Of a stretch of 64,000 nt of DNA, positions 1 to 59,669 are shown piece after piece; the first letter of the stretch is position 1, and each line of letters opens with the position of its first letter. Under the pieces are notes generated by a model. That model was not told where the DNA came from. It searched no databases and saw nothing but the letters and a program-made list of their open reading frames with translations. A program made the position numbers and the translations under genes. The stretch comes from Candidatus Daviesbacteria bacterium (GTDB taxonomy: Bacteria; Patescibacteriota; Microgenomatia; Daviesbacterales; UBA10151), in the NCBI GenBank assembly GCA_016186955.1, contig JACPKP010000004.1, positions 142,563 through 206,562 on the forward strand, in the 5' to 3' direction.

Positions 1-260
1 AGTTGAGTTTCCTAAAGAATGCTGATGTAATCTTCTTTCTAAATTGTCAGTGAATCCTTTATAAAATTCTCCTGTTTTATGGCTTTTGATAACATAAACA
101 TAGAACATTTAGCTTTTCTGAGTGTATACCTGCCTGCCGGCAGGCAGGCCATTCCACCACACCAGCAAATACTTAACATATTTTATCAGAACATGCCTGA
201 GAATTTAACTACCACTTTGATGCTTCACTTTTTGGAGCCTGAAGGGATATAATACGGATT

Positions 261-4836: not shown

Positions 4837-4938
4837 CTTCCAATATCACTCCTGGTTTGGTAAAATTGACAAAACAAATAAGATTCTAAGATTTGTTTTG
4901 TCATCCCGATCCGGCGTAGCCGGAGAGGGATCATGTTT

Positions 4939-5100
4939 CGCGGGATCGTCTAATGTAATACACCCCATTAGACGATATGATTGTAGACATATTGCGGGAT
5001 CGTCTAATGTAATACACCCCATTAGACGATATGATTGTAGACATATTGCGGGATCGTCTAATGTAATACACCACATTAGACGATATGATTGTAACTTCGT
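4939..5100. repeat. Tandem array of 3 x 54-bp units, each containing an 11-bp perfect inverted repeat
   Basis: The unit 'gcgggatcgtctaatgtaatacaccccattagacgatatgattgtagacatatt' repeats head-to-tail three times, with the third copy slightly diverged. The stem is atcgtctaatg/cattagacgat. The first 16 nt of each unit match a tRNA 5' end. Confidence 0.9.
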
Positions 5101-5137
5101 TTCAGAACCTTGCCATTACCCGATCTAAGTATGACCT

Positions 5138-5180
5138 TGCGGGATCGTCTAATGGTAGGACGACAGACTTTGCACATTTA
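5138..5180 (+). pseudogene. Degenerate tRNA-Gln-like 5' half (acceptor + D-arm + anticodon loop CTTTGCA, no 3' half)
   Basis: 'tgcgggatcgtctaatggtaggacgacagactttgca' parallels the intact tRNA-Gln at 5914. The anticodon-stem complement and the T-arm are missing. Confidence 0.4.
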
Positions 5181-10027: not shown

Positions 10028-10105
10028 AAAGAGGAGGTGGGAAGCCCTGCCTGTCCTGACTGCCGTCAGGCAGGACGGCAGGCAGGTAATCCACCTGGAG
10101 GGTGT
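10028..10105. repeat. 78-bp GC-rich palindrome-containing repeat (MITE-like), copy 1
   Basis: Near-identical (1 mismatch) to 13276-13353. It contains cctgcctgtcctgactgccgtcaggcaggacggcaggcagg. Confidence 0.85.
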
Positions 10106-10475
10106 ACAAGCTACCGAGATTGTCCCTAACGGCCGCAAAAAGACTCTTCAGGCAATCATCAGAGGCAAGATTGATACAGAGGCAGTAGTCCATACTGATA
10201 AATGGAAAGGCTATGATGGGTTAGTTGATGTGGGATATGACAAACACAAGAGGATTAACCATTCCAAAACATTTTCCTATGGAAATGGAATCCACATTAA
10301 CGGTATTGAGAACTTTTGGAGTTTTACTAAAGGTAGACTTGCTAAATTTAGAGGAGTTAAGGTAAACTTTGAATATCACCTAAAGGAATGTGAATGGAGA
10401 TACAAGAAAACCAAACAACAACTTTACAAGGAGCTCATAGTTTTACTGTCATTTCAGAAAGCCCCAGCTTTTTAA
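10061..10475 (+). pseudogene. IS1595-family transposase remnant (C-terminal portion only)
   Basis: '...VVHTDKWKGYDGLVDVGYDKHKRINHSKTFSYGNGIHINGIENFWSFTKGRLAKFRGV' matches the IS1595/ISXO2 C-terminal catalytic region. The N-terminal two thirds are absent. Confidence 0.6.
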
Positions 10476-10497
10476 AGCTGGGGATGAATGAAATTAT

Positions 10498-10522
10498 GGA
10501 TTCCCGTCTTCGCGGGAATGAC
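10498..10522. repeat. RPE-like short palindromic repeat copy (ggattcccgtcttcgcgggaatgac)
   Basis: Member of the GTCATYCCCGC-loop-GCGGGRATCC family. A second hairpin, caccgcttt-tt-aaagcggtg, follows. Confidence 0.7.
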
Positions 10523-10610
10523 AGGAAGATGCACCGCTTTTTAAAGCGGTGTAGATTCACTAAAAGGATTTAACAAATCGTTAATCTCCTAGTCTAGTAC
10601 CTAAAAAATT

Positions 10611-13275: not shown

Positions 13276-13353
13276 AAAGAGGAGGTGGGAAGCCCTGCCT
13301 GTCCTGACTGCCGTCAGGCAGGACGGCAGGCAGGTAATCCATCTGGAGGGTGT
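13276..13353. repeat. 78-bp GC-rich MITE-like repeat, copy 2
   Basis: Identical to 10028-10105 except for one C/T difference. Confidence 0.85.
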
Positions 13354-13527
13354 CAATCTGGTTTTCTATAATACCCTCATGATTTACAAAGTTTACATCC
13401 TTAGAACTCCCTCAAATAATCTGTACATTGGTCAAACCAATGATCTAGAAAGAAGCACTTATTAAAGGAGACTTCGATACTTAAAAGAGATTGAATCTGG
13501 TAAAATAATACAGTAATAAAAACAACT

Positions 13528-21912: not shown

Positions 21913-22977
21913 ATGCCCAAAAATGCTTCTGCTTTTGCAACTTTACCGTTAATCTTTGTTGTGATAATTTTAGGTTTAATATTGGCAGGCTTCCTGCTAA
22001 TTAAAGCTGGGAGGAATGCAGACCTATCTCAAAGGGTAGGGAAACCAGTTCCCAAAAAAATAGGTGTTATCCAGCATGTAAAAACCCTTGACCCTGTTTA
22101 CCAGGGCTTTAAGGAGGGTATGTCCAAACTGGGTTATACGGAAGGGGATAATGTATTGTTTGAATATATCGATGACGGTGGAGACATTTCAAAGGTAAGG
22201 GGGATAACCAGGGATTTTATAAACAAAAAGGTGGATTTAATCCTGGTGATTACAACCCAGGCTTTGGAGCAAACATTAAAAGAGAGCACTGCATCAGGTA
22301 ATGCTGCTGTACCAATCGTTTTTACAAACGGCAGCACTGCCATCCAGCAGGGGCTTGTTAAAAGTTTTAAGTCATCCGGAAATAATTCAACCGGCATTAT
22401 ACCTGACGACACTAAAGTAAGCGCAAAGAAGCTTGATTTCCTAAAGGATATCAACCCGGGCGCAAAAAAAGTCCTGATTTTTACCTCTCCAGGCGCTGTT
22501 GCAGGAGAGATTTCCGCACAATCTGCCAGAGAGGGCGCAAAAAAATTGGGTATAACTATCGTTGAGTATAAATTTAAGAATAAACCCGGACCATTATCAA
22601 CCCAGGAGCTTAAGGATTATATCAGCACACTGAAACCAGGTGATATTGATGCTATTATGACCATGCCCGAACCGGTTGTCAATAGCGCCCCGGAAAACCT
22701 GAAGATGCTTTTAGACCTGTCAAAAAGGCTCAAAGTCCCAACATTTTTTGTCAACTTGGGCCAAGGGGGGTTAATAGGCTATAACCTGGACCTTACGGAT
22801 AGCGGAAAACAGGCGGCTGAGATGGCTGATAAGATATTGAAGGGCGCTAAACCTGCAGATATTCCGCTGGGTTATTCAAGAAAGAACTATTTAGAAGTCA
22901 ATTTAAAACTGGCAAAAGAGCTGGGTATTACTATTCCTGATTCAATAATTGCGATCGCCGACAGAAAGATTGAATAA
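21913..22977 (+). CDS. ABC-type solute-binding protein (COG2984/ABC_sub_bind-like), paralog 1
   Basis: N-terminal TM anchor. It is a paralog of 23029-24099 with a near-identical last ~100 nt. Confidence 0.5.
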   Translation: MPKNASAFATLPLIFVVIILGLILAGFLLIKAGRNADLSQRVGKPVPKKIGVIQHVKTLDPVYQGFKEGMSKLGYTEGDNVLFEYIDDGGDISKVRGITRDFINKKVDLILVITTQALEQTLKESTASGNAAVPIVFTNGSTAIQQGLVKSFKSSGNNSTGIIPDDTKVSAKKLDFLKDINPGAKKVLIFTSPGAVAGEISAQSAREGAKKLGITIVEYKFKNKPGPLSTQELKDYISTLKPGDIDAIMTMPEPVVNSAPENLKMLLDLSKRLKVPTFFVNLGQGGLIGYNLDLTDSGKQAAEMADKILKGAKPADIPLGYSRKNYLEVNLKLAKELGITIPDSIIAIADRKIE

Positions 22978-23028: not shown

Positions 23029-24099
23029 ATGAAACTGCCTAAATTATCATCATTAGGATTTACTCCAACATTTTTAATTATTGGAGTAGCGGCATTGGTT
23101 GTTTTGGCAGGAAGTTTCTTTATCTATCAATCCAGCCGGAACCGACAGGTTGTTATTCCTCAAGAGATAAAACAGCCTAAAAAAATAGGGATTTTGCAGC
23201 ACATCAAAACTTTGGATAAAGTCATTGACGGCTTCAAAATAAAGATGACTGAATTGGGCTATGTTGAAGGCAAAGATATTGTTTATGACTACCAAACCAC
23301 TGGGGGAGACCCCTCAAAGGCAGCCGGAATAGCCAAAGAGTTTGTCAACAAAAAAGTAGATATGATCCTGGCGATAACCAGTCCGGCTCTTGGGCCGGCC
23401 ATAAAAGAGACAAGTGCATCTGCAAAACCAATCCCAATTGTATTTACAAATGCAATAAATCCCGTTGAAGCGAAGTTTATTAAAAGCTATAAATCCTCAG
23501 GAAATAATGCGACCGGAATTATACCTGATGCTGTGGCGTTAAGTTCAAAACAGGTTGAGTTTTTTAACAAAATCAGCCCAAAGTCTAAAAGGATAGGGAT
23601 GTTTTCATCCCATATATCACCTTATGCCAATGCCTCAATTGATGCGGTCAGAAAAAACGCCGAAAAATTCGGTATCACTGTCCTGGATTATGAATTTAAG
23701 AAATTACCGGGGCCTGCTTCACTGCAGGAGATCCAGGCTATAGCAGATAGTATCAAACCCGGGGATATTGATGCAATTATGACAGTTTCTGACCCGATTG
23801 CAACAGCCCAACCAAAAGTTTTTCCTATTTTGAACAATCTCGGAAAAAGACTAAAAATACCTACCCTTTATTTGAATACCGGCACAGAAGGATTAATCAC
23901 CTACAATGCTGACTATATCGAAACAGGTAAATCAGCCGCTGTTATGGCTGACAAGATATTCAAAGGGACTAACCCGGCAGATATACCTATTGAATATAAC
24001 AAGAGGAATTATTTAGAAGTTAACTTAAAACTGGCAAAAGAGCTGGGTATTACCATCCCTGACACAATAATTGCGATCGCCGACAGAAAGATTGAATAA
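23029..24099 (+). CDS. ABC-type solute-binding protein (COG2984-like), paralog 2
   Basis: Roughly 50% identity to paralog 1 with the same C-terminus, 'RNYLEVNLKLAKELGITIPDxIIAIADRKIE'. Confidence 0.5.
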   Translation: MKLPKLSSLGFTPTFLIIGVAALVVLAGSFFIYQSSRNRQVVIPQEIKQPKKIGILQHIKTLDKVIDGFKIKMTELGYVEGKDIVYDYQTTGGDPSKAAGIAKEFVNKKVDMILAITSPALGPAIKETSASAKPIPIVFTNAINPVEAKFIKSYKSSGNNATGIIPDAVALSSKQVEFFNKISPKSKRIGMFSSHISPYANASIDAVRKNAEKFGITVLDYEFKKLPGPASLQEIQAIADSIKPGDIDAIMTVSDPIATAQPKVFPILNNLGKRLKIPTLYLNTGTEGLITYNADYIETGKSAAVMADKIFKGTNPADIPIEYNKRNYLEVNLKLAKELGITIPDTIIAIADRKIE

Positions 24100-42956: not shown

Positions 42957-43673
42957 ATGGATTTTGAGGTTCAGGGAAAAACTATTCTTTTTGTATGCGC
43001 ACATCCCGATGATCTGGAGTTTTGTTTCGGGGGAACTGTTGCAAAATGGGCGGGCGAGGGTGCATCAATTTATTATCTTATATTAACTGACGGAAGCAAA
43101 GGCTGCGAAGATCCACAACTGGATCCAACTGAACTAATAAAAACCAGACAGAGAGAACAGGATGAGGCAGCCAAAATTCTAGGTGTTAAAAAGGTGATAT
43201 TTTTAGACCATGTCGACGGCGAACTTGAAAATAACCCAAAACTTAGAAAACAGATAGTCAGGGTCATCCGCAAGATAAAACCGGATATAGTTGTAACAAT
43301 GGATCCTACATTTGTCTATGACGAGAAATATGGCATCATCAACCATCCTGACCACCGGGTCGCCGGCCAGACCACCTTGGACTCTGTCTACCCTTTTGCC
43401 AGAAACCACCGTGCTTTTCCGGAGCTTTTGGATGAAGGGTTAACACCCCACCATGTCAGTGATATCCTTCTTTTCAACAGCCTAAGGATGAATTTTTTTG
43501 TAGATATAGAAGATACTCTTGCAAAAAAGCTTAAAGCGCTAAACTGTCATAAAAGCCAGTTTAAAGATCCACAAGCGGTTGAAAAGCTGGTAATACTTGT
43601 TGCCCAAAACGCGGGTAAGAAAGCAAAGCTCAAATATGCAGAAGGCTTAACCTGGGTCCATATTAATTTTTAG
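42957..43673 (+). CDS. PIG-L/LmbE-family N-acetylglucosaminyl deacetylase (BshB/MshB-like)
   Basis: 'LFVCAHPDDLEFCFGG' and 'HPDHR' zinc-binding signatures are present. Confidence 0.75.
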   Translation: MDFEVQGKTILFVCAHPDDLEFCFGGTVAKWAGEGASIYYLILTDGSKGCEDPQLDPTELIKTRQREQDEAAKILGVKKVIFLDHVDGELENNPKLRKQIVRVIRKIKPDIVVTMDPTFVYDEKYGIINHPDHRVAGQTTLDSVYPFARNHRAFPELLDEGLTPHHVSDILLFNSLRMNFFVDIEDTLAKKLKALNCHKSQFKDPQAVEKLVILVAQNAGKKAKLKYAEGLTWVHINF

Positions 43674-46600
43674 GGCTTAAATATTCATCCCAGCTTTTAA
43701 TTTGCAGATCTTCAAGTTTTTTTTCAGTTACCGCATAGGAAAATTCAATCGCTGCCTGTAGGTTTGTCATCAGGGGTATGGCAAAATCCACACAATTTCT
43801 CCTGATGATAAAACCATCCCTCTTGGCCCGATCTTCTCCTATTAAACTGATATTGATGGCAAGATCTACCTGAGCTTTTTTTATCAGGTCTAAAACAGTA
43901 GGGTGTTTCCCTTCTGATAATTTAAAAACAGTGGTATTTTTAATACCTGAGAGTTTTAGGAATTTCGAAGTCCCCTCAGTGGCAAAAATTTCTAAATTAA
44001 GAGTAGTCAATTTCCGGGCGCTTTCCAAAAAATCCAGTTTGTTTTTATCTCCGCCGATAGAGAGGAAAATAGATTTTTCCGGCATTTTCCAGCCTGTTGA
44101 AAAAAGGGCTTTCAGATATGCTTCATGAAGGTCCCGGCCAAAACAAGCCACCTCACCTGTGGATGACATCTCCACCTTAAGTTTGGGGTCAGCTTCTTTA
44201 ATCCTGTTAAATGAAAATTGTGGCGCTTTCACTCCCACATAATCTAAATCAACTGTCTGAAAATCACCTGTAATATTTTCTCCAACTATTACTTTTGCGG
44301 CAATTTCAATAAAATTTATCCCTGTCACCTTTGATACAAAAGGGAATGAGCGGGATGCACGAAGGTTAAGTTCAATGACCATCACCTTATTGTCTTTTGC
44401 TAAAAACTGGATATTAAATGGCCCGTGGATATTTAAAACCTTGAGGATTTTTTTAGTCTCCAGTTTTATCTGACGCATTGTTTCAAGATACAGCCTTTGC
44501 GGAGGCAAGACTAAAGTTGCATCCCCGGAGTGTACTCCTGCATTCTCGATATGTTCGCTGATCGCATAAATTAAAAGTTTGCCGCTCTTTGCAACCCCGT
44601 CTATCTCTATTTCCTTGGCATTGTCAATAAATTTACTGATCACCACCGGGTGTTTTGAAGAAACCTTAGCAGCTTTGTTTAAATATATAGCAACCTCTCT
44701 GGAGGAATTTGCTATATTCATGGCAGACCCACTTAAAACATAAGATGGCCTGATCAGGACAGGATAACCTACTTTCCCGGCAAACCGTTTGACACTTCCG
44801 GTATTTTTTATTTGCTCCCATTGGGGCTGGGATATGGAAAGCCTGTCTAAAAGCGCACTGAATTTATGGCGGTCTTCTGCAAAATCAATACTTTTGGTTG
44901 GCGTCCCCAATATAGCCATCTTTTCAGCGGCAAATAAAGCAGCAAGATTATTGGGTATCTGCCCACCAAAAGCTAAAACCAACTTGGCATTTTTCTCAAC
45001 CTTGTAGATATCAACTATTCTTTCCAATGTAAGTTCTTCAAAATAAAGTTTGTCTGCAATATCAAAATCCGTAGAGACAGTTTCAGGGTTACAGTTTATA
45101 ACTATTGTTTCCAACCCCTGCTGCCTGAAAGTTGCAACAGCCGTTACCAGGCACCAGTCAAATTCGACAGATGAACCTATCCTGTAAGGGCCGGCGCCTA
45201 AAACAATTACTTTTTTGCAGTTATGAGTTTGCCTGAATCCTGAATCCTGGATCCTTAATCTTGAATCATTTTCTGATTCCTCTCCATGGTATGTCATATA
45301 AAGGTAGTTTGTTTTGGCAGGGTACTCTGCAGCCAGCGTATCTATATGCTTGGTTTTAGGGTAAATATTCCATCTTTCCCTAAACTTCCTGACTTTGTTT
45401 AAACTCATCCTGCAGGAGGCTGCGATTAAATTATCGGAAAAGCCTAATTTCTTTGCCTGCAAAAAATTTTCGTTGTTAAACTTATAGGCAGGGCCAAAAT
45501 TCTTTTGATAATCTACAATCTCTTTGACCTGGTTTAAAAACCATTGGTCAATGCCTGTTTCTTTACTTATACTTTCGACAGATGAATTCCTTAAAAATTG
45601 TTGCGCTATTGCAAAAAGCCTTAAACTCCCGGGTGAGAGGGAATCTTCTCCTGGCATACCAAGCAGCCCGTCCTGTCCTGTCTCAAGCATCCTGACTGCT
45701 TTCTGCAGGCTTTCTGGAAAACTTCTGCCTATTGCCATTACCTCACCCACACTTTTCATTTCAGAACCGATCCGTAAATTCGCCCCTTCAAATTTTTGCA
45801 GGTCCCACCTGGGAATTTTAACCACTATATAATCAAGGGCAGGCTCAAAAAAAGCTGAAGTTCCGGTAACAATATTTTTAAGCTCCCTCAGGCTATAACC
45901 TAAACTTAGCTTGCATGCTATGTATGCCAGCGGGTATCCGGTTGCTTTTGAAGCAAGTGCAGATGACCTGGACAACCTGGCGTTTACCTCAATCACCCGG
46001 TAATCATCAGACTTTGGGTCAAGCGCAAACTGGATGTTGCATTCGCCAACTATCCCAAGATGTTCAATCACTTTAAGTGAAATTTGCCTGAGCAGATGGT
46101 ATTGATAGTTGTTTAGGGTTTGGGAGGGAGCCACTACAATACTCTCGCCCGTATGAATTCCCACCGGATCCATATTCTCCATATTGCAAACAGCTATTTT
46201 ATTCCCACCTTTATCCCTGACGATTTCATATTCAATCTCTTTCCAATGCCTTAAGTATTCTTCAATAGCAACCTGTGGGGCGTTTTTTAAAGCCATGGAT
46301 ACAACCAAATTAAGGTCTTCTTTGTTATTTACAACAGAAGATCCAAGTCCCCCAAGGGAAAAGCCCGACCTTACCATAACCGGATAACCTATCTTATTTG
46401 CAATCATCAATGCCCCCTTTACATCCCTGGCAAAACCGCCTCTGGGCGCTTTTATGCCGATTCCACCCAAATACTTTGCAAAAAGCTGGCGGTCTTCGGT
46501 GATTTCAATACTTTTTACAGGCGTCCCTAAAACAGTAATCTTATTTTTTTTGAACACACCACTGCCCGACAGGTTTAAACCACAATTTAAGGCAGTTTGT

Positions 46601-46866
46601 CCGCCAAACGAGAGCAGGGCGCAATCCGGTTTTTCCTTTTCAATAATTTTTTGGACAAAATAGGGGGTGACAGGTAAAAAATAGATCTTGCCGGCAAGCT
46701 CCTGTGATGTTTGGATGGTGGCGATATTAGGGTTTACCAAAACTACATTTATGCCTTCTTCTTTAAGGGCTTTCAAAGCCTGTGAGCCGGAATAGTCAAA
46801 TTCACCGGCTTCACCGATCTTAAGAGCGCCAGAACCAAGTAATAAGACTTTTTTTGGTTTTATCAT
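43663..46866 (-). CDS. carB: Carbamoyl-phosphate synthase large subunit
   Basis: 'KKVLLLGSGALKIGEAGEFDYSG', duplicated ATP-grasp halves and a C-terminal MGS-like domain are present. The start is moved to Met30 ('MIKPKK') because the ORF-track N-terminus reads through a palindromic repeat. Confidence 0.9.
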   Translation of the reverse strand: MIKPKKVLLLGSGALKIGEAGEFDYSGSQALKALKEEGINVVLVNPNIATIQTSQELAGKIYFLPVTPYFVQKIIEKEKPDCALLSFGGQTALNCGLNLSGSGVFKKNKITVLGTPVKSIEITEDRQLFAKYLGGIGIKAPRGGFARDVKGALMIANKIGYPVMVRSGFSLGGLGSSVVNNKEDLNLVVSMALKNAPQVAIEEYLRHWKEIEYEIVRDKGGNKIAVCNMENMDPVGIHTGESIVVAPSQTLNNYQYHLLRQISLKVIEHLGIVGECNIQFALDPKSDDYRVIEVNARLSRSSALASKATGYPLAYIACKLSLGYSLRELKNIVTGTSAFFEPALDYIVVKIPRWDLQKFEGANLRIGSEMKSVGEVMAIGRSFPESLQKAVRMLETGQDGLLGMPGEDSLSPGSLRLFAIAQQFLRNSSVESISKETGIDQWFLNQVKEIVDYQKNFGPAYKFNNENFLQAKKLGFSDNLIAASCRMSLNKVRKFRERWNIYPKTKHIDTLAAEYPAKTNYLYMTYHGEESENDSRLRIQDSGFRQTHNCKKVIVLGAGPYRIGSSVEFDWCLVTAVATFRQQGLETIVINCNPETVSTDFDIADKLYFEELTLERIVDIYKVEKNAKLVLAFGGQIPNNLAALFAAEKMAILGTPTKSIDFAEDRHKFSALLDRLSISQPQWEQIKNTGSVKRFAGKVGYPVLIRPSYVLSGSAMNIANSSREVAIYLNKAAKVSSKHPVVISKFIDNAKEIEIDGVAKSGKLLIYAISEHIENAGVHSGDATLVLPPQRLYLETMRQIKLETKKILKVLNIHGPFNIQFLAKDNKVMVIELNLRASRSFPFVSKVTGINFIEIAAKVIVGENITGDFQTVDLDYVGVKAPQFSFNRIKEADPKLKVEMSSTGEVACFGRDLHEAYLKALFSTGWKMPEKSIFLSIGGDKNKLDFLESARKLTTLNLEIFATEGTSKFLKLSGIKNTTVFKLSEGKHPTVLDLIKKAQVDLAINISLIGEDRAKRDGFIIRRNCVDFAIPLMTNLQAAIEFSYAVTEKKLEDLQIKSWDEYLSPKN

Positions 46867-46867
46867 C

Positions 46868-46910
46868 GTCATTGCGAGGACTCCGATATCCATCGGAGGA
46901 CGTGGCAATC
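46868..46910. repeat. RPE-like palindromic repeat variant immediately 5' of carB (gtcattgcgagga...ggcaatc) + T-run
   Basis: It shares the GTCATT... ...AATC termini with the family. The internal hairpin is ctccgat-atcc-atcggag. Confidence 0.5.
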
Positions 46911-47135
46911 TTTTTATTAGCAAGGCTCGAAGGCTTTGTTTATGAAGCTCCACGGCTAAAGCCGTGGTATCTTCTCATTACAGCTTCACAGCAAAAAGCT
47001 GTTCAGCTGACCGCCTTCGGCGGAGAAAAGCATTCATCCACGGTTAAAACCGTGGTTTTCTGCTTTTTGCTGATAAGATTTCTCGCTCCGCTTTAAATGA
47101 CAAATTGAATTTTGAAATTGTATTCAGTTTGTCAA

Positions 47136-48260
47136 CTAAATCATACTAATGAACTCATCAAACAGATACTCAGCATCAGTCGGACCTGGGCTAGCCTCAG
47201 GGTGAAACTGGACAGCCAGAAATGGCTTTTTTTTATGCCTGATTCCCTCATTGGAACCATCATTTAAATTAATAAACCATTCACTCCAACCCAAAGGCAT
47301 GCTTGTAAAATTAACGGCAAAACCGTGATTTTGGCTGGTTATAATGGCTTTTTTAGTAATGAGATTTTGGACAGGTTGGTTTTGGCCCCGATGGCCAAAT
47401 TTCAGTTTGTATGTATCTCCGCCTGCAGCCAAAGCCAGCAGCTGGCTGCCCAGACAAATCCCGAATACAGGGACAGATTGGCTCAACAAATTTTTTATAG
47501 TTAGTATTGTATCCTTGGAATTTTTGGGGTTGCCCGGCCCGTTGGAGATTAAAACTCCGTCAAAATTCCATTTTTCCTCAATAGGGTCAAAATTCCAGGG
47601 AGCAACAGTTACCCTAAGCTTACGCTTCAGCAGACTCCTGATGATGTTTTGTTTGGCGCCACAATCTATCACCACAACATTTTTTTTGCCTGTTCCATAT
47701 GTTTGGGGTTTTTCAATTGAAACAAACTGCAAAACATTTTCTAGATTTGGATTGTAAATTTCATTTTTGTCATTCTGAACTTGATTCAGAATCTTTCCTG
47801 CATTAGAATGGATTCCCGCTTTCGCTCGCCTCGCTGAAGCTTCGGCGAAGCGGGCGGGAATGACAGTAAGCCGTCCCAACATTGCTCCTTGAGATCTTAA
47901 CTTGGTTGTCAAAGCTCTGGTGTCTATCCCCTGCAAAGCAGGAATACCTTCTTTTTTGAGCCACTCACCCAAACTCATGATGCTTGCAAAGTGGGAGGGG
48001 GAATCAATGTAATTTTGGACAATAAGACCCCTTACCCAAATCTTCCTGGACTCAAAATATTTAGGGTTAGGTACTCCATAGCTTCCAATAATGGGGTAGG
48101 TGAGGACTAAAATTTGGCCAAAGTAGCTGGGGTCTGTCAGGCTCTCGGGGTAACCCACCATCCCTGTATTAAAAACAACCTCCCCTGAGCTTGAAACATC
48201 AGCCCCGAAAGATTCACCTATAAAGGTAGCGCCATCAGATAGAATTAATTTCCCCTGCAA
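47136..48260 (-). CDS. carA: Carbamoyl-phosphate synthase small subunit (glutamine amidotransferase)
   Basis: GATase catalytic 'GICLGSQ' and 'HGFAV...QFHPE' are present. It carries an ~18-aa in-frame insertion encoded by a palindromic repeat. Confidence 0.85.
   Translation of the reverse strand: MQGKLILSDGATFIGESFGADVSSSGEVVFNTGMVGYPESLTDPSYFGQILVLTYPIIGSYGVPNPKYFESRKIWVRGLIVQNYIDSPSHFASIMSLGEWLKKEGIPALQGIDTRALTTKLRSQGAMLGRLTVIPARFAEASARRAKAGIHSNAGKILNQVQNDKNEIYNPNLENVLQFVSIEKPQTYGTGKKNVVVIDCGAKQNIIRSLLKRKLRVTVAPWNFDPIEEKWNFDGVLISNGPGNPKNSKDTILTIKNLLSQSVPVFGICLGSQLLALAAGGDTYKLKFGHRGQNQPVQNLITKKAIITSQNHGFAVNFTSMPLGWSEWFINLNDGSNEGIRHKKKPFLAVQFHPEASPGPTDAEYLFDEFISMI
47811..47864. repeat. 54-nt RPE-like palindromic repeat inserted in-frame within carA
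   Basis: On the coding strand it reads gtcattcccgcccgcttcgccgaagcttcagcgaggcgagcgaaagcgggaatc. This translates to 'VIPARFAEASARRAKAGI' between conserved CarA blocks. Confidence 0.75.
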
Positions 48261-48353
48261 GCTTTAACCAGTCTAAAGAAAATTGATATCCGATGTCAAT
48301 TGCCAATTTGAGTAATTTTTGAAAATTTGCAACTTATAGGTTATAATTAGGTA

Positions 48354-49499
48354 ATGGCGGTCATACTCAAAAATATCCCAAAAATTGATGACGTTGAAAC
48401 AACAATCCGGATTTTAAACCATCTGGGTGTCAAAACCCTCCTTACCGGAGACAAGCTTGAAATAGAAGCCCTAACTGTCAAAACACATATCTTACCTTCT
48501 GATTTAATGAGGAAGTTGCGTGGTTCAATAGTTTTAGTGGGTTCAATTCTGGCAAGACAAGGTAAGGCCCAGTTTTCTTTTCCGGGCGGAGATATTGTCG
48601 GCAAAAGAAGCATTGATACACATCTTAAAGGGTTTAGAAACCTTGGGTTTAAAGTGCTGAAAAACGACTTAAATTTTCTGATTTCAAAAGGGACTGGGGA
48701 AAGAGAAGATATTTTCCTGGATGAAGCTTCAGTAACAGCAACAGAAAACTTGATCCTGGCTTCTGTTTTGAGCCAGGGTAAAATTACTCTGAAAAATTGT
48801 GCAACAGAACCTCATGTGACGGACCTATGTCTGATGCTCAATAAAATGGGCGCTGACATTAAAGGGGTTGGGACACACACATTAAATATAAAGGGGGCAA
48901 AAAAATTGAAAGGGACGCAGTTTAAGCTTGGCGCAGATTATCTGGAAATGGGGACTTATGCTGTTGCCGCTGCCATAACAGGAGGAAAAATCGGACTTAA
49001 AAACTGCAGCATCAGAGATCTTGAACCAGTGGTTTACCCTCTTAAAAAAATGGGGATTGAGCTTGAAAAAAATAAGGGGATTATTTATGCATATTCTAAA
49101 AATATTTTATCCATACCAAAGCTGCATACCAATATTTGGCCGGGGTTCCCCACAGACCTGATGAGCGCTCTTATTGTTTTGGCAACCCAAGCCAAAGGTA
49201 TTTCGCTCCTGCATGACTGGATGTATGAAACAAGGATGTTTTTTGTAGATAAACTGGTCAATATGGGCGCTGATATCACTATCTCTGACCCGCACCGGGT
49301 TTTAGTCTACGGCCCGAGTAAACTCTATGGCAGGGAGCTGGAGACACCGGACATCAGGGCCGGTATGGCTTTAGTTCTGGCAGCTCTTATTGCCAAAGGG
49401 GAAAGCGTTATCAACAAAGCTGAACTGATTGACAGAGGCTATGAGGATGTGGAGGGAAAACTCTCTTCCCTGGGCGCAGATATTCAAAAGATAGATTAA
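48354..49499 (+). CDS. murA: UDP-N-acetylglucosamine 1-carboxyvinyltransferase (MurA), Asp-type active site
   Basis: EPT fold. 'FPGGDIVGKRSIDTHL' matches the MurA active-site loop with Asp replacing the fosfomycin-target Cys. It appears ~35 aa shorter at the N-terminus than typical MurA. Confidence 0.75.
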   Translation: MAVILKNIPKIDDVETTIRILNHLGVKTLLTGDKLEIEALTVKTHILPSDLMRKLRGSIVLVGSILARQGKAQFSFPGGDIVGKRSIDTHLKGFRNLGFKVLKNDLNFLISKGTGEREDIFLDEASVTATENLILASVLSQGKITLKNCATEPHVTDLCLMLNKMGADIKGVGTHTLNIKGAKKLKGTQFKLGADYLEMGTYAVAAAITGGKIGLKNCSIRDLEPVVYPLKKMGIELEKNKGIIYAYSKNILSIPKLHTNIWPGFPTDLMSALIVLATQAKGISLLHDWMYETRMFFVDKLVNMGADITISDPHRVLVYGPSKLYGRELETPDIRAGMALVLAALIAKGESVINKAELIDRGYEDVEGKLSSLGADIQKID

Positions 49500-51522: not shown

Positions 51523-52680
51523 TTATATAAGATTGGTCAGCAGATTAGCAAACTGCCTTACAGCCCGGTCTGCCTCAAAAATATCACCCAAGCTTGGGCT
51601 ATATTTTGGGGTGTGTTTTGCTAAAACATTTTCTACCACTTCAGGGATTTTGTAAAAGGGCAGCATGCCATTTAAAAAAGCTTCCACTGCAATATCATTG
51701 GCGACGTTTAATACTGCCGGGTACGTTCCTCCTGATTTAGCAGATTCAATAGCCAGCCTTAAACAGCGGAATGTCTCAGTATCCGGCTCTTCAAATGATA
51801 GTGTCGGGTAGTCAGCAAAAGATAATTTCCTGAAATTATTTTGGATTCTCCTACCCGGGTATAACAGGGCATATTGGATAGGCAAGCGCATGTCAGGAGC
51901 TCCCATTTGTGCAATCACCGACCCATCAACAAACTCCACTGCAGAATGTATGACTGATTGTGGATGGATTATTATGTTTATCTGATCCATGGGTAAACCG
52001 AACAACCAGTGCGCTTCTATCGCCTCAAACCCTTTATTCATTAAGGTCGCGCTGTCAACTGTGATTTTTTTGCCCATCTTCCAATTTGGATGGTTTAATG
52101 CATCCTGTAAGGTCACACTTTTGAGTTGCTCCGTATTTAATCCACGAAACGGGCCGCCGGAACAAGTCAGATAAATTTTACTTACTTGTTCAATGCAATG
52201 GTTTTGGAGGCATTGGAAAATGGCAGAGTGTTCAGAGTCTATCGGTAAAATTTGTGCCTTTGCTTTTTCTGCTGCATCCATAACAACATTGCCTGCTGCA
52301 ACCAAAACCTCTTTTGTGGCTAAAGCTACCTTTTTTTTAGCCTCAATTGCTGCAATAGTAGGTATTATCCCCGGTAAACCAGGTGTCGCTACTACAACCC
52401 TATCAACCTTCTCTGAGGTAGCAGCCAAAACATTACCAAAATCGCCCCAATAAATTAATTCATACCCGTCAAACATCTGATTTAAAATTTTGGCAGAATT
52501 TTTATTCTTTACAGAAACTAAAGCCGGGGAAAACTGTTTAATTTGTTCTGATAACAATTTGGTGTTTGAGCCGGCAGTCAGGGCATAAGCCCTTAAAGAA
52601 TCTTTATGTTGTTTTATAACTTCCAGGGCTTGGGAGCCAATTGAACCGGTAGAACCCAAAATTGCAATGTTTTCCTTCAT
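51523..52680 (-). CDS. dxr: 1-deoxy-D-xylulose 5-phosphate reductoisomerase
   Basis: 'MKENIAILGSTGSIGSQAL', 'LPIDSEHSAIFQCL' and 'LTCSGGPFR' are present. The start is set at Met35 because the upstream extension reads through a GC-rich repeat region. Confidence 0.85.
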   Translation of the reverse strand: MKENIAILGSTGSIGSQALEVIKQHKDSLRAYALTAGSNTKLLSEQIKQFSPALVSVKNKNSAKILNQMFDGYELIYWGDFGNVLAATSEKVDRVVVATPGLPGIIPTIAAIEAKKKVALATKEVLVAAGNVVMDAAEKAKAQILPIDSEHSAIFQCLQNHCIEQVSKIYLTCSGGPFRGLNTEQLKSVTLQDALNHPNWKMGKKITVDSATLMNKGFEAIEAHWLFGLPMDQINIIIHPQSVIHSAVEFVDGSVIAQMGAPDMRLPIQYALLYPGRRIQNNFRKLSFADYPTLSFEEPDTETFRCLRLAIESAKSGGTYPAVLNVANDIAVEAFLNGMLPFYKIPEVVENVLAKHTPKYSPSLGDIFEADRAVRQFANLLTNLI

Positions 52681-52757
52681 TTTTGTATAATAGCAGATAC
52701 AGCCGCAATTGCCAACGTGGTCAAGGCGGGCGCCTGAAGAGCGTCTTATCTCAGTCC

Positions 52758-52853
52758 GATTCTGGGTTGCGGCACCGAGCACCTGCGAGGTGCAAAAAAC
52801 CAGATCAAGGTTCTGACGCGAAGCGTCATGGTTCTTATTCTGGGTTGCGGCAC
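52758..52853. repeat. Two copies of 17-nt direct repeat ATTCTGGGTTGCGGCAC 79 bp apart, with short GC hairpins, in the dxr leader
   Basis: Copies at 52758-52775 and 52837-52853. Hairpins gcacc-tgcga-ggtgc and gacgcg-a-agcgtc. Confidence 0.5.
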
Positions 52854-57876: not shown

Positions 57877-57901
57877 GTCATCCCCGCGGAAGCGGGGATC
57901 C
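57877..57901. repeat. RPE-like palindromic repeat (gtcatccccgcggaagcggggatcc) abutting the glmU-like start
   Basis: Family member with a C/G variant. It reads as 'DPRFRGDD' in the gene frame. Confidence 0.7.
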
Positions 57902-57911
57902 AATTAAAATC

Positions 57912-59669
57912 CTACCTCACAACGACTGACTTTGCCAGATTTCTAGGTCTATCAGGGTTCAACCCTAATTTCAAAGCCAGATAGTATGACAAAAGCTGGG
58001 CAAAAACAGGGTGGGGGATAACTGAGCTTGCCCCAACATCCCTTACCTTAAAAAAGAAGTCAAAAACCGGATTGTTCTCCGGTCCTACACCGATAATAAA
58101 TGCGCCCCGTGCCTTAACCTCCATGGCGTTTGCCAAAATGGCCTGTTTAGTTTCATCTTCCGGTACAAAAACTATCACAGGAGTATTTTTTTCTATTAGC
58201 GCAATCACTCCATGCTTAAGCTCTCCTCCTGCAAAACCCTCAGCATGGATATAGGCGTTTTCCTTAATTTTAAGACTTGATTCCATTGCAACAGGGTACG
58301 AAAGCCCCCTTCCCAAAATGAAAATATTTTTCTGGTGGAATATTTTACCTGCTAAATTTTTGATTGCAGACCTCCTTTTAAGAATTGATTCAATTTCTCT
58401 GGCGCTTTCAAGGATTATTTTTTGGGCTGTTTTTCTTTTACCAACAAGACAATAAGATAAAAACACCATATGGGCAAACATGGCTGTCAAAGCCTTTGTG
58501 GAACATACTGCTTTTTCAACACCTGCCCTCAGCAAAACAGGGAAATCCACGCTCCTGTACAAGGTTGAGCCTAAAACATTAACCAAAGCAACTGTTTTTG
58601 CACCATGCTTTTTTGCTGAAAGTACAGGTTCAAGCGTATCAATGCTTTCCCCTGACTGTGAAACAGCCACCACCAGGCTTTTAGGCTTTATGTAATCCTC
58701 GATATAATTGAACTCAGATCCAACTGAAAAGTTAACATGTTTTTTGGCTATTTTTGAGAAAAGATAAACTCCCAGCAGACATGAATAACTGGCCGATCCG
58801 CAAGCGATAAAAAATGTCCCATAGGCTTTCCTGATCATGCCCGCCACTTGCTCCACCTCTTTGGCGTTTTGTGCAATATTCCGGAGCGCCTTTGGCTGCT
58901 CATATATTTCTTTTTCTAAAAAGTATTTATATTTTTGCAGGCCTGAAGTACTGTGTTCCCAAGGCACCGTAGTAATAATAGGCTGAAGTTTTCTGGAGTT
59001 TAGGCTGTTGTAAAGCTCTAATTCTTTATTTAACCTGATAAGCTGGTTATCTTGTAAAAACACTAATTTTTTTGTGTGGGGGAGTAAGGCGTTCGGATCG
59101 GAAGCAATAAAAAGTTTTCCATTGCCAACACCTGCGATAAGGGGTGAACCAACTTTAGCTGCAATAATTTCATTCCCATCAGATACCACAATAGCGTTTA
59201 ATCCGCGTAATTTCTGGAATATATTTAAAACCGCTTGATTTAAACCATTTTTTTTTAGCGCTTCTTCAATCAAGTGTACGATCACCTCGGTATCAGTTTC
59301 AGATTTCAGATTGTGGCTTTTAAGGGTTTTTTTAAGCTCAAGATAATTCTCAACTATGCCGTTATGGACTAAAACCAGTTTGCCGCTGCAATCTTTATGT
59401 GGGTGGGCATTAATTTGAGTAACACCTCCATGTGTGGCCCAGCGGGTATGCCCTATTGCCAATCCCACACCGTCATTCCCGCGAAAGCGGGAATCCATTA
59501 TTTTTGGTAAAAAACCTGTGTTTTTTTCTATCTTCCATATTCCATCTTCTATATTCCAACTTGCTATTCCCCAAGAATCATAACCCCTGTACTCTATATC
59601 TTTGAGGCCATTAAAGGTTGTTTGAACCGCATTTGTATCCTGACCAATTACCCCAAAAATTCCGCACAT
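57912..59669 (-). CDS. glmS: Glutamine--fructose-6-phosphate aminotransferase
   Basis: 'MCGIFGV', 'GHTRWATHG' and two SIS domains with 'SQSGES' are present. It carries a 9-aa in-frame insertion from a palindromic repeat. Confidence 0.9.
   Translation of the reverse strand: MCGIFGVIGQDTNAVQTTFNGLKDIEYRGYDSWGIASWNIEDGIWKIEKNTGFLPKIMDSRFRGNDGVGLAIGHTRWATHGGVTQINAHPHKDCSGKLVLVHNGIVENYLELKKTLKSHNLKSETDTEVIVHLIEEALKKNGLNQAVLNIFQKLRGLNAIVVSDGNEIIAAKVGSPLIAGVGNGKLFIASDPNALLPHTKKLVFLQDNQLIRLNKELELYNSLNSRKLQPIITTVPWEHSTSGLQKYKYFLEKEIYEQPKALRNIAQNAKEVEQVAGMIRKAYGTFFIACGSASYSCLLGVYLFSKIAKKHVNFSVGSEFNYIEDYIKPKSLVVAVSQSGESIDTLEPVLSAKKHGAKTVALVNVLGSTLYRSVDFPVLLRAGVEKAVCSTKALTAMFAHMVFLSYCLVGKRKTAQKIILESAREIESILKRRSAIKNLAGKIFHQKNIFILGRGLSYPVAMESSLKIKENAYIHAEGFAGGELKHGVIALIEKNTPVIVFVPEDETKQAILANAMEVKARGAFIIGVGPENNPVFDFFFKVRDVGASSVIPHPVFAQLLSYYLALKLGLNPDRPRNLAKSVVVR
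59472..59496. repeat. RPE-like palindromic repeat inserted in-frame within glmS
   Basis: gtcattcccgcgaaagcgggaatcc translates on the coding strand to 'MDSRFRGND', immediately before 'GVGLAIGHTRWATHG'. Confidence 0.75.

Follow-up and report, generated by a model that had tools for sequence, protein, structure and literature searches.

A dispersed hairpin repeat of the dRS3/NTS/SRM kind lies in frame in the CarA linker of a Daviesbacteria genome

Why should the gene for a housekeeping enzyme carry a palindrome in the middle of its coding sequence, and where would such a palindrome come from? The question is raised by carA, encoding the glutamine-hydrolysing carbamoyl-phosphate synthase small subunit, in a 64,000-nucleotide (nt) stretch of Candidatus Daviesbacteria DNA from contig JACPKP010000004.1 (the whole stretch is called the window here). 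The gene lies on the minus strand at 47136..48260, encodes 374 amino acids (aa), and hosts two hairpins. The original prediction, made from the letters of the DNA, held that a 54-nt palindromic repeat at 47811-47864 is inserted in frame in carA and adds 18 residues. Those 54 nt are present as described. Our answer, to which we assign a probability of roughly 0.8, is that the element is a hairpin of a long subfamily of the dRS3/NTS/SRM repeats that landed in, or was converted in frame into, a permissive linker of CarA and left the enzyme intact.

The identity of the host gene follows from several features. The window CarA is 100% identical to a database protein named for Candidatus Daviesbacteria bacterium, and its Protein Data Bank matches are E. 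coli CarA and human CPS1. It possesses a small-chain domain (Pfam CPSase_sm_chain, residues 5-130, 8.5e-50) and a class-I amidotransferase domain (GATase, residues 196-372, 9.5e-55) with the Cys-His-Glu triad, and its gene adjoins carB. By coordinates, the 54 nt are codons 133-150 (minus strand, window 47864..47811), situated in frame between the two CarA domains and reading VIPARFAEASARRAKAGI; this peptide is the exact translation of the palindrome. In an alignment of 120 CarA homologues, the window protein keeps 87 of 87 invariant family columns, including the triad C269, H353, and E355. The large-subunit gene carB (43663..46953, minus strand; identified by Pfam and aligned with the CarB proteins of contigs L001 and L002) is intact directly downstream. 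Because the 87 columns are kept and carB is intact, it is plausible that CarA still functions despite the insert, as had been proposed from the preserved frame. The insert is presumably translated, and it would be neutral or nearly so for the enzyme.

What kind of element is it? It is a palindrome, albeit an imperfect and nested one, and the 54 nt prove to be most of a natural unit of 58 nt, located at 47808..47865 on the minus strand (TGTCATTCCCGC-CCGCTTCGCCGAAGCTTCAGCGAGGCGAGC-GAAAGCGGGAATCCAT). The unit, a long variant of the dRS3/NTS/SRM-type repeat, has the ends TGTCATTCCCGC...GCGGGAATCCAT, with TGTCAT at one side and ATCCAT at the other. Its outer arm ATTCCCGC (8 nt, 47812..47819, plus strand) is perfectly complementary to the partner GCGGGAAT at 47854-47861. 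Inside the arms is a GC stem, CGCT-T-CGCC / GGCG-AGCG, with one bulge, and the AAGCTT-centered mini-palindrome that the original prediction had noticed is visible at 47836..47843 (GAAGCTTC, plus strand), where it forms the loop of the family consensus. The predicted structure of the 58-nt unit comprises an outer stem of 8 bp, an inner stem of 4+4 bp, and a loop, with a folding energy of -28.6 kcal/mol as RNA and -14.7 to -17.1 kcal/mol as DNA. For the flagged region, the corresponding values are -33.9 kcal/mol as RNA (z = -4.0; 0 of 200 shuffles equal) and -17.2 kcal/mol as DNA (z = -2.3). The element has a GC content of 65%, compared with 39% for the window and 42.5% for the remainder of carA, and four of the six reading frames are open through it.

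Two familiar explanations for a structured element were considered and rejected. Specifically, an intrinsic terminator does not fit a stem with no T-run after it, and an intron or intein does not fit 54 nt, which is far too small and shows no features of either. Rfam, searched at a permissive threshold over 47000-48400 and at the gathering threshold over the whole window, gave no match in the linker and only tRNAs elsewhere.

Is the element an insertion or an ordinary part of CarA? It falls in a hypervariable stretch, 0-45 aa long among the homologues, between the conserved G(V/A)MLG and YDPNxENVLP motifs, which agrees with the interdomain linker that had been proposed. The shortest homologues (342 aa; P0006 and P0042) have almost no linker, and the element is absent from ~115 of the 119 other homologues. 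The closest homologue, P0002, encoded on L001, is 81% identical in aa sequence outside the linker, and its gene has the same neighbors as in the window (a purF-like gene, murA, carA, carB, and PIG-L). Its linker consists of 12 unrelated residues. Because the syntenic L001 and ~115/119 homologues lack the element and linker length is so variable, the carA element is an insertion relative to its relatives.

A near-identical peptide, VIPARFA(A/D)RRAKAGI, occurs only in P0003 (on L002) and P0010 (on L003), at the same place. Both genes also possess the nucleotide palindrome, in a 45-nt form from which 9 nt of the loop are missing; we did not find the 18 residues conserved in relatives without a palindrome. 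In P0030 (on L004), the window's arms surround a different interior. The 45-nt version of L002 and L003 was considered as the ancestral form and rejected: the form with an 11-nt loop is the mode of the family, and the 45-nt form is a deletion variant.

The comparison with L002 also speaks to the age of the element. Outside the linker, carA of the window and of L002 share 66% nt identity, with 40% at third positions, whereas the elements themselves are identical at 49 of 49 nt apart from one 9-nt indel. The calculated chance of such a match is 0.66^49 = 1.4e-9. Since the element is identical at 49/49 positions in a host gene that is 66% identical, it is not old, freely drifting DNA. Recent independent arrival, homogenization against other copies, and constraint are the possibilities. 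More generally, near-identical copies across genomes saturated at synonymous sites imply ongoing mobility, gene conversion, or nuclease-imposed constraint.

These same data bear on a different account, which we regard as very unlikely, namely that the segment is an ancestral linker shared by the window, L002, and L003, lost in L001, with its peptide kept as a functional helix. Consistent with that account, the element lies within one codon of the same site in the window, L002, and L003, and after each copy comes a second, oppositely oriented hairpin. An AlphaFold2 model made on the 120-sequence alignment (mean predicted local distance difference test score, pLDDT, 88.9) likewise places a helix at residues 136-147, within the insert, with moderate confidence (pLDDT ~74-79). 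By sequence alignment, E. coli CarA has a segment of similar length at the equivalent place, including the Ala-rich PDAALALEKARAF. However, selection on a peptide would leave synonymous sites free, and they are identical throughout the 49 nt; the nearest relative and ~115/119 other homologues do without the segment; and the identical DNA turns up both between genes and, in all six frames, inside unrelated ones. In the model, the peptide of the second hairpin (residues 153-164) has pLDDT below 50, and the rest of the structure matches E. coli CarA (1JDB) with a TM score of 0.87 and human CPS1 with a TM score of 0.88. Sequence alignment gives human CPS1 7 residues at the linker versus 35 in the window CarA.

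If the carA element is an inserted hairpin, does it belong to a repeat family? The word "repeat" in the original prediction holds for copies elsewhere and not for the window. The exact 54-mer occurs once in the window even when 3 mismatches are allowed (0 expected), only the termini and the short form recur there, and the status of the element as a repeat comes from other genomes and from metagenomes. The arm octamer ATTCCCGC is found 6 times in the window versus 1.5 expected, and no shuffle gave 6. A metagenome scan for the long interior CCGCTTCG..GCGAGGCGAGC..GGGRAT retrieved at least 120 contigs, from which 88 copies were parsed. Of the 88, 53 share the window's arms, and the most frequent loop length, 11 nt, is also that of the window. 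Three other copies possess the window loop CCGAAGCTTCA, 12 possess CCAAAGCTTCA, and 9 possess CCGGAGCTTCA. A consensus built from 49 canonical metagenome copies agrees with the window unit at all but 2 of 58 positions, and a single nt separates the unit from its nearest copy. It follows that the 54-nt form is canonical and that the carA element is a canonical member of a dispersed family. Among subfamilies, the arms co-vary (ATTCCCGC/GCGGGAAT, ATCCCCGA/TCGGGGAT, ATTCCCGA/TCGGGAAT, ATCCCGTA/TACGGGAT, and ATTCCCAA/TTGGGAAT), as expected if the hairpin itself matters.

The window holds five family members, two of them in carA. The second carA hairpin, GTCATTCTGAACTTGATTCAGAATC (47769..47793, plus strand), has AT-rich arms and the opposite orientation, shares the termini of the first, and begins 16 nt downstream of it in the coding direction (1 match, 0 expected). 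It encodes CarA residues 156-164 (KILNQVQND) and takes the place of GGATCCCCGATTAGATCGGGGATGAC in L002 and L003. A near-identical copy, TGTCATTCTGAACTTGTTTCAGAATCT, lies on the unrelated metagenome contig L230 (4513-4539), so the second hairpin is another subfamily member; the idea that it is a local copy that decayed in situ was rejected for the same reason. Thus, the count of 18 added residues stands for the first hairpin but misses the second, and together the two encode ~27 of roughly 35 linker residues.

The other three members are short. A 28-nt copy, CGTCATTCCCGCGAAAGCGGGAATCCAT (59471..59498, plus strand), is in frame in glmS (57912..59669, minus strand), where it encodes IMDSRFRGND within the GlmS glutaminase domain, as judged from the open reading frame (ORF) and Pfam. 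E. coli GlmS has MLAQAAEEHPLH where this copy sits, and the net length relative to E. coli is unchanged. A variant short hairpin, GTCATCCCCGCGGAAGCGGGGATCC (57877..57901, plus strand), occupies the 35-nt gap between the glmS stop codon and the ATG of the next gene. Finally, a short intergenic copy, TGTCATTCCCGCGAAGACGGGAATCCAT, lies at 10496..10523 on the minus strand. Elsewhere in the window, an SRM-like nested hairpin, TGTCATCCCGATCCGGCGTAGCCGGAGAGGGATCAT, at 4899-4927 stands directly upstream of three head-to-tail copies of a 54-nt unit (4940-5101; a partial fourth lies near 5140). These units start with GCGGGATCGTCTAATG, which resembles a tRNA 5' end, and each has an internal palindrome, ATCGTCTAATG..CATTAGACGAT.

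The connection to a named family emerged from a 20-mer, ATTCCCGCGAAAGCGGGAAT, that matched a Neisseria construct sequence and thereby led to dRS3. That construct was the sole match in a literature search for the translated peptides and the 20-mer, and a literature search on candidate phyla radiation (CPR) bacteria plus palindromic inserts returned nothing relevant. The classical dRS3 repeat, ATTCCC-N8-GGGAAT, forms part of the 28-nt NTS, CGTCATTCCCGCGMAVGCGGGAATCYRG (Chenal et al. 2025, PMC11893778). NTS-like hairpin repeats of 20-50 nt, termed SRMs ("Ssn-related motifs"), occur in several phyla and flank the gene for SsnA, a 94-aa single-domain GIY-YIG protein that binds the hairpin when the DNA is single-stranded and cleaves directly upstream of it; the NTS-ssnA-NTS arrangement has been likened to an insertion sequence (PMC11893778). 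The carA unit, reading TGTCATTCCCGC...GCGGGAATCCAT, has the NTS consensus flanks and the palindromic arms CGTCATTCCCGCG..GCGGGAATCYRG, and 27 of the 28 nt of the glmS copy agree with the NTS consensus as published (PMC11893778). Two sites in the window (59471-59498 and 10496-10523), versus 0.15 expected, fit the published SRM motif HGTCWYN(0-2)YYVSBRHN(0-5)WNVSBRGN(0-2)RNCYNB, and so do four sites in the 5.8-kb L002.

The short form is spread widely. At least 120 genome stretches (L005-L124), from many phyla, contain exactly the same 27-mer, GTCATTCCCGCGAAAGCGGGAATCCAT. Their sources include Alpha-, Beta-, and Gammaproteobacteria, Chloroflexota, Planctomycetota, Ignavibacteria, Zixibacteria, Omnitrophus, Nitrospirales, and Vampirovibrionales, as well as the CPR groups Peribacteria and Microgenomates. 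The stretches that harbor it span 32% to 73% GC. Such identity across phyla would imply horizontal spread or very tight constraint.

Does the family keep company with a GIY-YIG gene, as the published SRMs do? It does flank SsnA-like genes. In L026 and L081, a short hairpin stands on both sides of a small GIY-YIG ORF in inverted orientation. L031 has a small GIY-YIG ORF with a related short hairpin upstream and the 27-mer downstream, and in L044 the hairpin is upstream only of such an ORF, at a point where the contig ends. For the long variant, an SsnA-like ORF is present on 8 of the at least 120 contigs. In L154, L206, L214, and L215, 2-40 nt separate the long hairpin from the SsnA-like ORF downstream of it; the L154 copy has exactly the loop found in the window, and in L206 and L215 (Pfam GIY-YIG, 2.8e-17 and 2.4e-19) short inverted hairpins follow the ORF. 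Because of these four layouts, the long variant is a genuine end-hairpin of a hairpin-ssnA-hairpin unit. We infer that a GIY-YIG nuclease, or some other hairpin-specific enzyme, spreads the family.

The choice of enzyme deserves scrutiny, given that the activity shown for SsnA is cutting only. Tyrosine (Y1) transposases that spread hairpin repeats are an established precedent (REP/BIME, cited in PMC11893778), and in Neisseria a phage recombinase is known to target dRS3 (PMC11893778). Conceivably, then, the hairpins are spread by a REP-associated tyrosine transposase (RAYT, IS200/IS605-like) or by an IS110/IS1111-type recombinase that targets palindromes, with the GIY-YIG association being secondary. 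We consider this unlikely. The SsnA-like ORF is directly abutted by hairpins on 8 independent contigs, on both sides in 4 of them; the elements begin with GTCAT and not with the REP head GTAG/GTGG; and no RAYT-like gene was noticed in the window, whose ORFs were not scanned systematically for RAYT.

The window itself does encode a small single-domain GIY-YIG protein. The 5' part of its gene lies at 1..108 on the minus strand, and the full 82-aa product can be read from L126 (56-304). A strict GIY-YIG regular expression over the window gave no match, and the gene was found by tblastn with GIY-YIG queries and then confirmed by Pfam (GIY-YIG, 1.6e-13); NCBIfam assigned the small GIY-YIG proteins to no family. 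The product is 35% identical to the hairpin-flanked SsnA-like protein of L026. It could be this genome's hairpin nuclease, but for a different hairpin family. A 78-nt repeat with a long CCTGCC...GGCAGG hairpin is present in two copies that are 99% identical (13276-13353 and 10028-10105). A GIY-YIG-like fragment interrupted by an internal stop (13382-13504) comes after one copy, and a shortened IS1595-family transposase (10106-10475; Pfam DDE_Tnp_IS1595, 1.6e-13) abuts the other.

Is carA exceptional in hosting a translated copy? It is not. The element has at least 100 open codons on both sides in 14 of the at least 120 long-variant contigs. By Pfam, the in-frame hosts are LeuRS, the NAD-dependent DNA ligase LigA, UvrA, PheS, MiaA, an RluD-type pseudouridine synthase, and an RsmI-like methylase; the host in L157 reads as GlmS by sequence. 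All six reading frames are represented among the copies. In L002, carB carries one short and one long copy, both in frame, in the linker preceding the second synthetase half. Thus, the hairpin family repeatedly sits in frame in housekeeping genes. The corresponding carB linker of the window (45184-45291, minus strand) likewise precedes the second synthetase half; it exceeds that of L001 by 7 residues and contains a small palindrome, GAATCAGAAAATGATTC, together with AGGATTC heptamer repeats.

These copies also help to dispose of a technical worry. The contig belongs to a metagenome-assembled genome, it alone carries the exact CarA protein, and independent Logan assemblies of the same organism consist of short contigs that break near other palindromes; searches with the exact CarA and MurA proteins found no match in the contig index of independent assemblies. 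One might suspect, then, that assembly or binning wrongly joined a repeat into carA. We judge such an artefact to be extremely improbable, because the insert keeps the exact frame of an uninterrupted gene and has normal CarA sequence to either side, independent assemblies from other samples (L002 and L003) show the same arrangement, and dozens of other contigs harbor in-frame copies.

Might the hairpin be useful where it is? Under such an explanation, a DNA or RNA hairpin in the carA linker would be selected as a translational pause, as a determinant of mRNA processing or stability, or as a nuclease site modulating carAB recombination. Hairpin-forming sequence is present in all 7 carA linkers for which DNA was read, and it comes from three or more unrelated families. 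The window, L002, L003, and L004 carry SRM hairpins, L247 and L248 carry inverted heptanucleotide arrays, and L001 has a short remnant. Moreover, the element is far more conserved than the surrounding carA, and its arms co-vary between subfamilies. However, co-varying arms are expected of any hairpin-recognized element, and identity among copies is expected of recently spread repeats. The 342-aa homologues are too short to accommodate a hairpin, copies of the same elements are frequent in intergenic DNA and in numerous unrelated genes, and the stem has neither a U-run after it nor an Rfam match. A selected role for the hairpin at the carA site is therefore possible but poorly supported, and we think it improbable.

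What the linkers do indicate is that this segment of carA is a sink in which hairpin-forming repeats of several kinds collect. The arrays of the other Daviesbacteria linkers are (AATGGAC)x4.9 in L247 (3439-3515) and (AGAGTCA)x4.3 in L248 (441-470). Each precedes an inverted array and translates to a 7-residue periodic peptide (NGQWTMD... and ESRVKSQ..., respectively), and similar 7-residue periodic patterns appear in dozens of the 120 CarA homologues.

How, then, might the hairpin have come to lie in CarA? Our proposal begins with the SRM form: short, oriented palindromes of the plan (T/C)GTCAT-stem-loop-stem-ATCC, which in Neisseria and other bacteria small GIY-YIG nucleases (SsnA) bind as single-stranded hairpins and cut just upstream. 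The long subfamily lengthens the 8-bp NTS stem by adding a further GC stem, CGCTTCGCC/GGCGAGCG, and a loop of 11 nt. A copy of this hairpin would have landed in, or been converted into, the DNA for the CarA interdomain linker, a segment presumably free to vary in Daviesbacteria. Selection would then retain only those copies whose length and frame leave the ORF open. The notion is that the carA element would be read as an Ala/Arg-rich 18-residue peptide, with the rest of the enzyme unchanged.

Several observations weigh against the reading of the carA element as a dRS3/NTS/SRM-type hairpin spread into a tolerant linker. The 58-nt unit is not matched by the SRM motif, its interior being 34 nt as opposed to loops of at most 5 nt. 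In the 64-kb window, no SsnA-type gene is flanked by NTS-type hairpins, and the GIY-YIG gene at the window's edge adjoins a different palindrome, CCTGCCTGCCGGCAGGCAGG (CCTGCC...GGCAGG), at 130-149, 21 nt upstream. No direct repeat indicative of a target-site duplication stands beside the unit in the window, L002, L003, or L004, and the exact boundary of the insertion is unset because the empty-site linkers are too diverged. SsnA is a nuclease, and its transposition or copying of hairpins is only hypothesized by Chenal et al. (PMC11893778). Lastly, a hotspot or selection would account for the site shared by the window, L002, and L003 as well as passive tolerance does.

Placing the element among known systems makes both its kinship and its peculiarities plain. 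With the dRS3/NTS/SRM repeats it shares identical flanks and 8-nt arms ((C/T)GTCATTCCCGC...GCGGGAATCC), an oriented hairpin in a multicopy dispersed repeat, a short 27-mer common across phyla, and a hairpin-gene-hairpin layout at small GIY-YIG genes, and two short window copies fit the SRM motif. It differs in its second stem and 11-nt loop, which give the carA copy a longer interior than the published ones; in its location inside a gene and in frame, whereas 2% of NTS copies are intragenic in N. meningitidis (PMC11893778); in its CPR host, a group probably absent from the Chenal et al. survey of RefSeq reference/representative genomes (PMC11893778); and in having no NTS-flanked ssnA in view in this window.

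In behavior, the closest parallel is that of the Rickettsia palindromic elements (RPE). The part of a later summary (PMC10969869) that deals with the work of Ogata et al. 2000 describes palindromic repeats in frame in many unrelated housekeeping genes, adding peptide segments at fold-compatible positions in enzymes that apparently still function. Similarly, one repeat family is found here in frame in LeuRS, LigA, UvrA, PheS, MiaA, RluD-like, RsmI-like, GlmS, CarA, and CarB proteins. The likeness drawn here is one of behavior: RPE are ~100-150 bp and form Rickettsia-specific families (PMC10969869), whereas the carA unit is 58 nt, and the carA hairpin family has a candidate partner enzyme.

Two further classes invite comparison. 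REP/BIME elements with their RAYT partners are likewise short, GC-rich, imperfect palindromes, often in inverted pairs, that flank a presumed spreader gene and are recognized as single-stranded hairpins. Their head is GTAG/GTGG, they are extragenic, and their partner is a Y1 HUH transposase, whereas the carA family has the head GTCAT, both intragenic and intergenic copies, and a GIY-YIG nuclease gene between its hairpins. Bacterial miniature inverted-repeat transposable elements (Correia, ERIC, QMITE, and others) are also non-autonomous, form stable stem-loops, and occasionally fuse in frame with host ORFs. Typically, however, those elements measure 100-400 bp, are rich in AT, and combine terminal inverted repeats of insertion-sequence origin with target-site duplications; no such features are apparent in the carA unit. 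The carA element is thus a new member, of long form and from a CPR host, of the dRS3/NTS/SRM family, and it behaves like the Rickettsia palindromic elements.

Two other features of the window are recorded here. Adjacent paralogous genes at 21913-22977 and 23029-24099 (354 and 356 aa) are ~72-78% identical in repeated stretches with a spacing of 1122 nt. ARAGORN calls a tRNA-Phe at 52702-52776, inside a long minus-strand ORF (51523..52782); the call has no Rfam match at the gathering threshold and is possibly false.

What does the finding mean? The repeat family and the in-frame behavior were both already known, and nothing is changed in what is known of CarA. What is extended is the host range: the dRS3/NTS/SRM family, recently tied to a single-strand-specific nuclease, is also present in small CPR genomes, and there it enters genes in frame, whereas in Neisseria it is almost wholly intergenic. 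There is a practical consequence for annotation, as the strings VIPAKAGI, SFPRKRES, MDSRFRGND, and VIPARFA.ASARRAKAGI in predicted proteins are translated repeats and not conserved motifs. A bolder possibility, which we advance tentatively and would not back at even odds, is that Ssn-type hairpins are active colonizers of coding sequence in CPR/Patescibacteria, constituting a second system, independent of that in Rickettsia, in which selfish hairpin sequence routinely becomes new translated segments of essential enzymes. A near-identical element in a heavily diverged gene provides a concrete handle on how hairpins spread. If a GIY-YIG nuclease does drive that spread, the carA linker would be a natural record of a nuclease–hairpin pair spreading through genomes and reshaping proteins as it goes.

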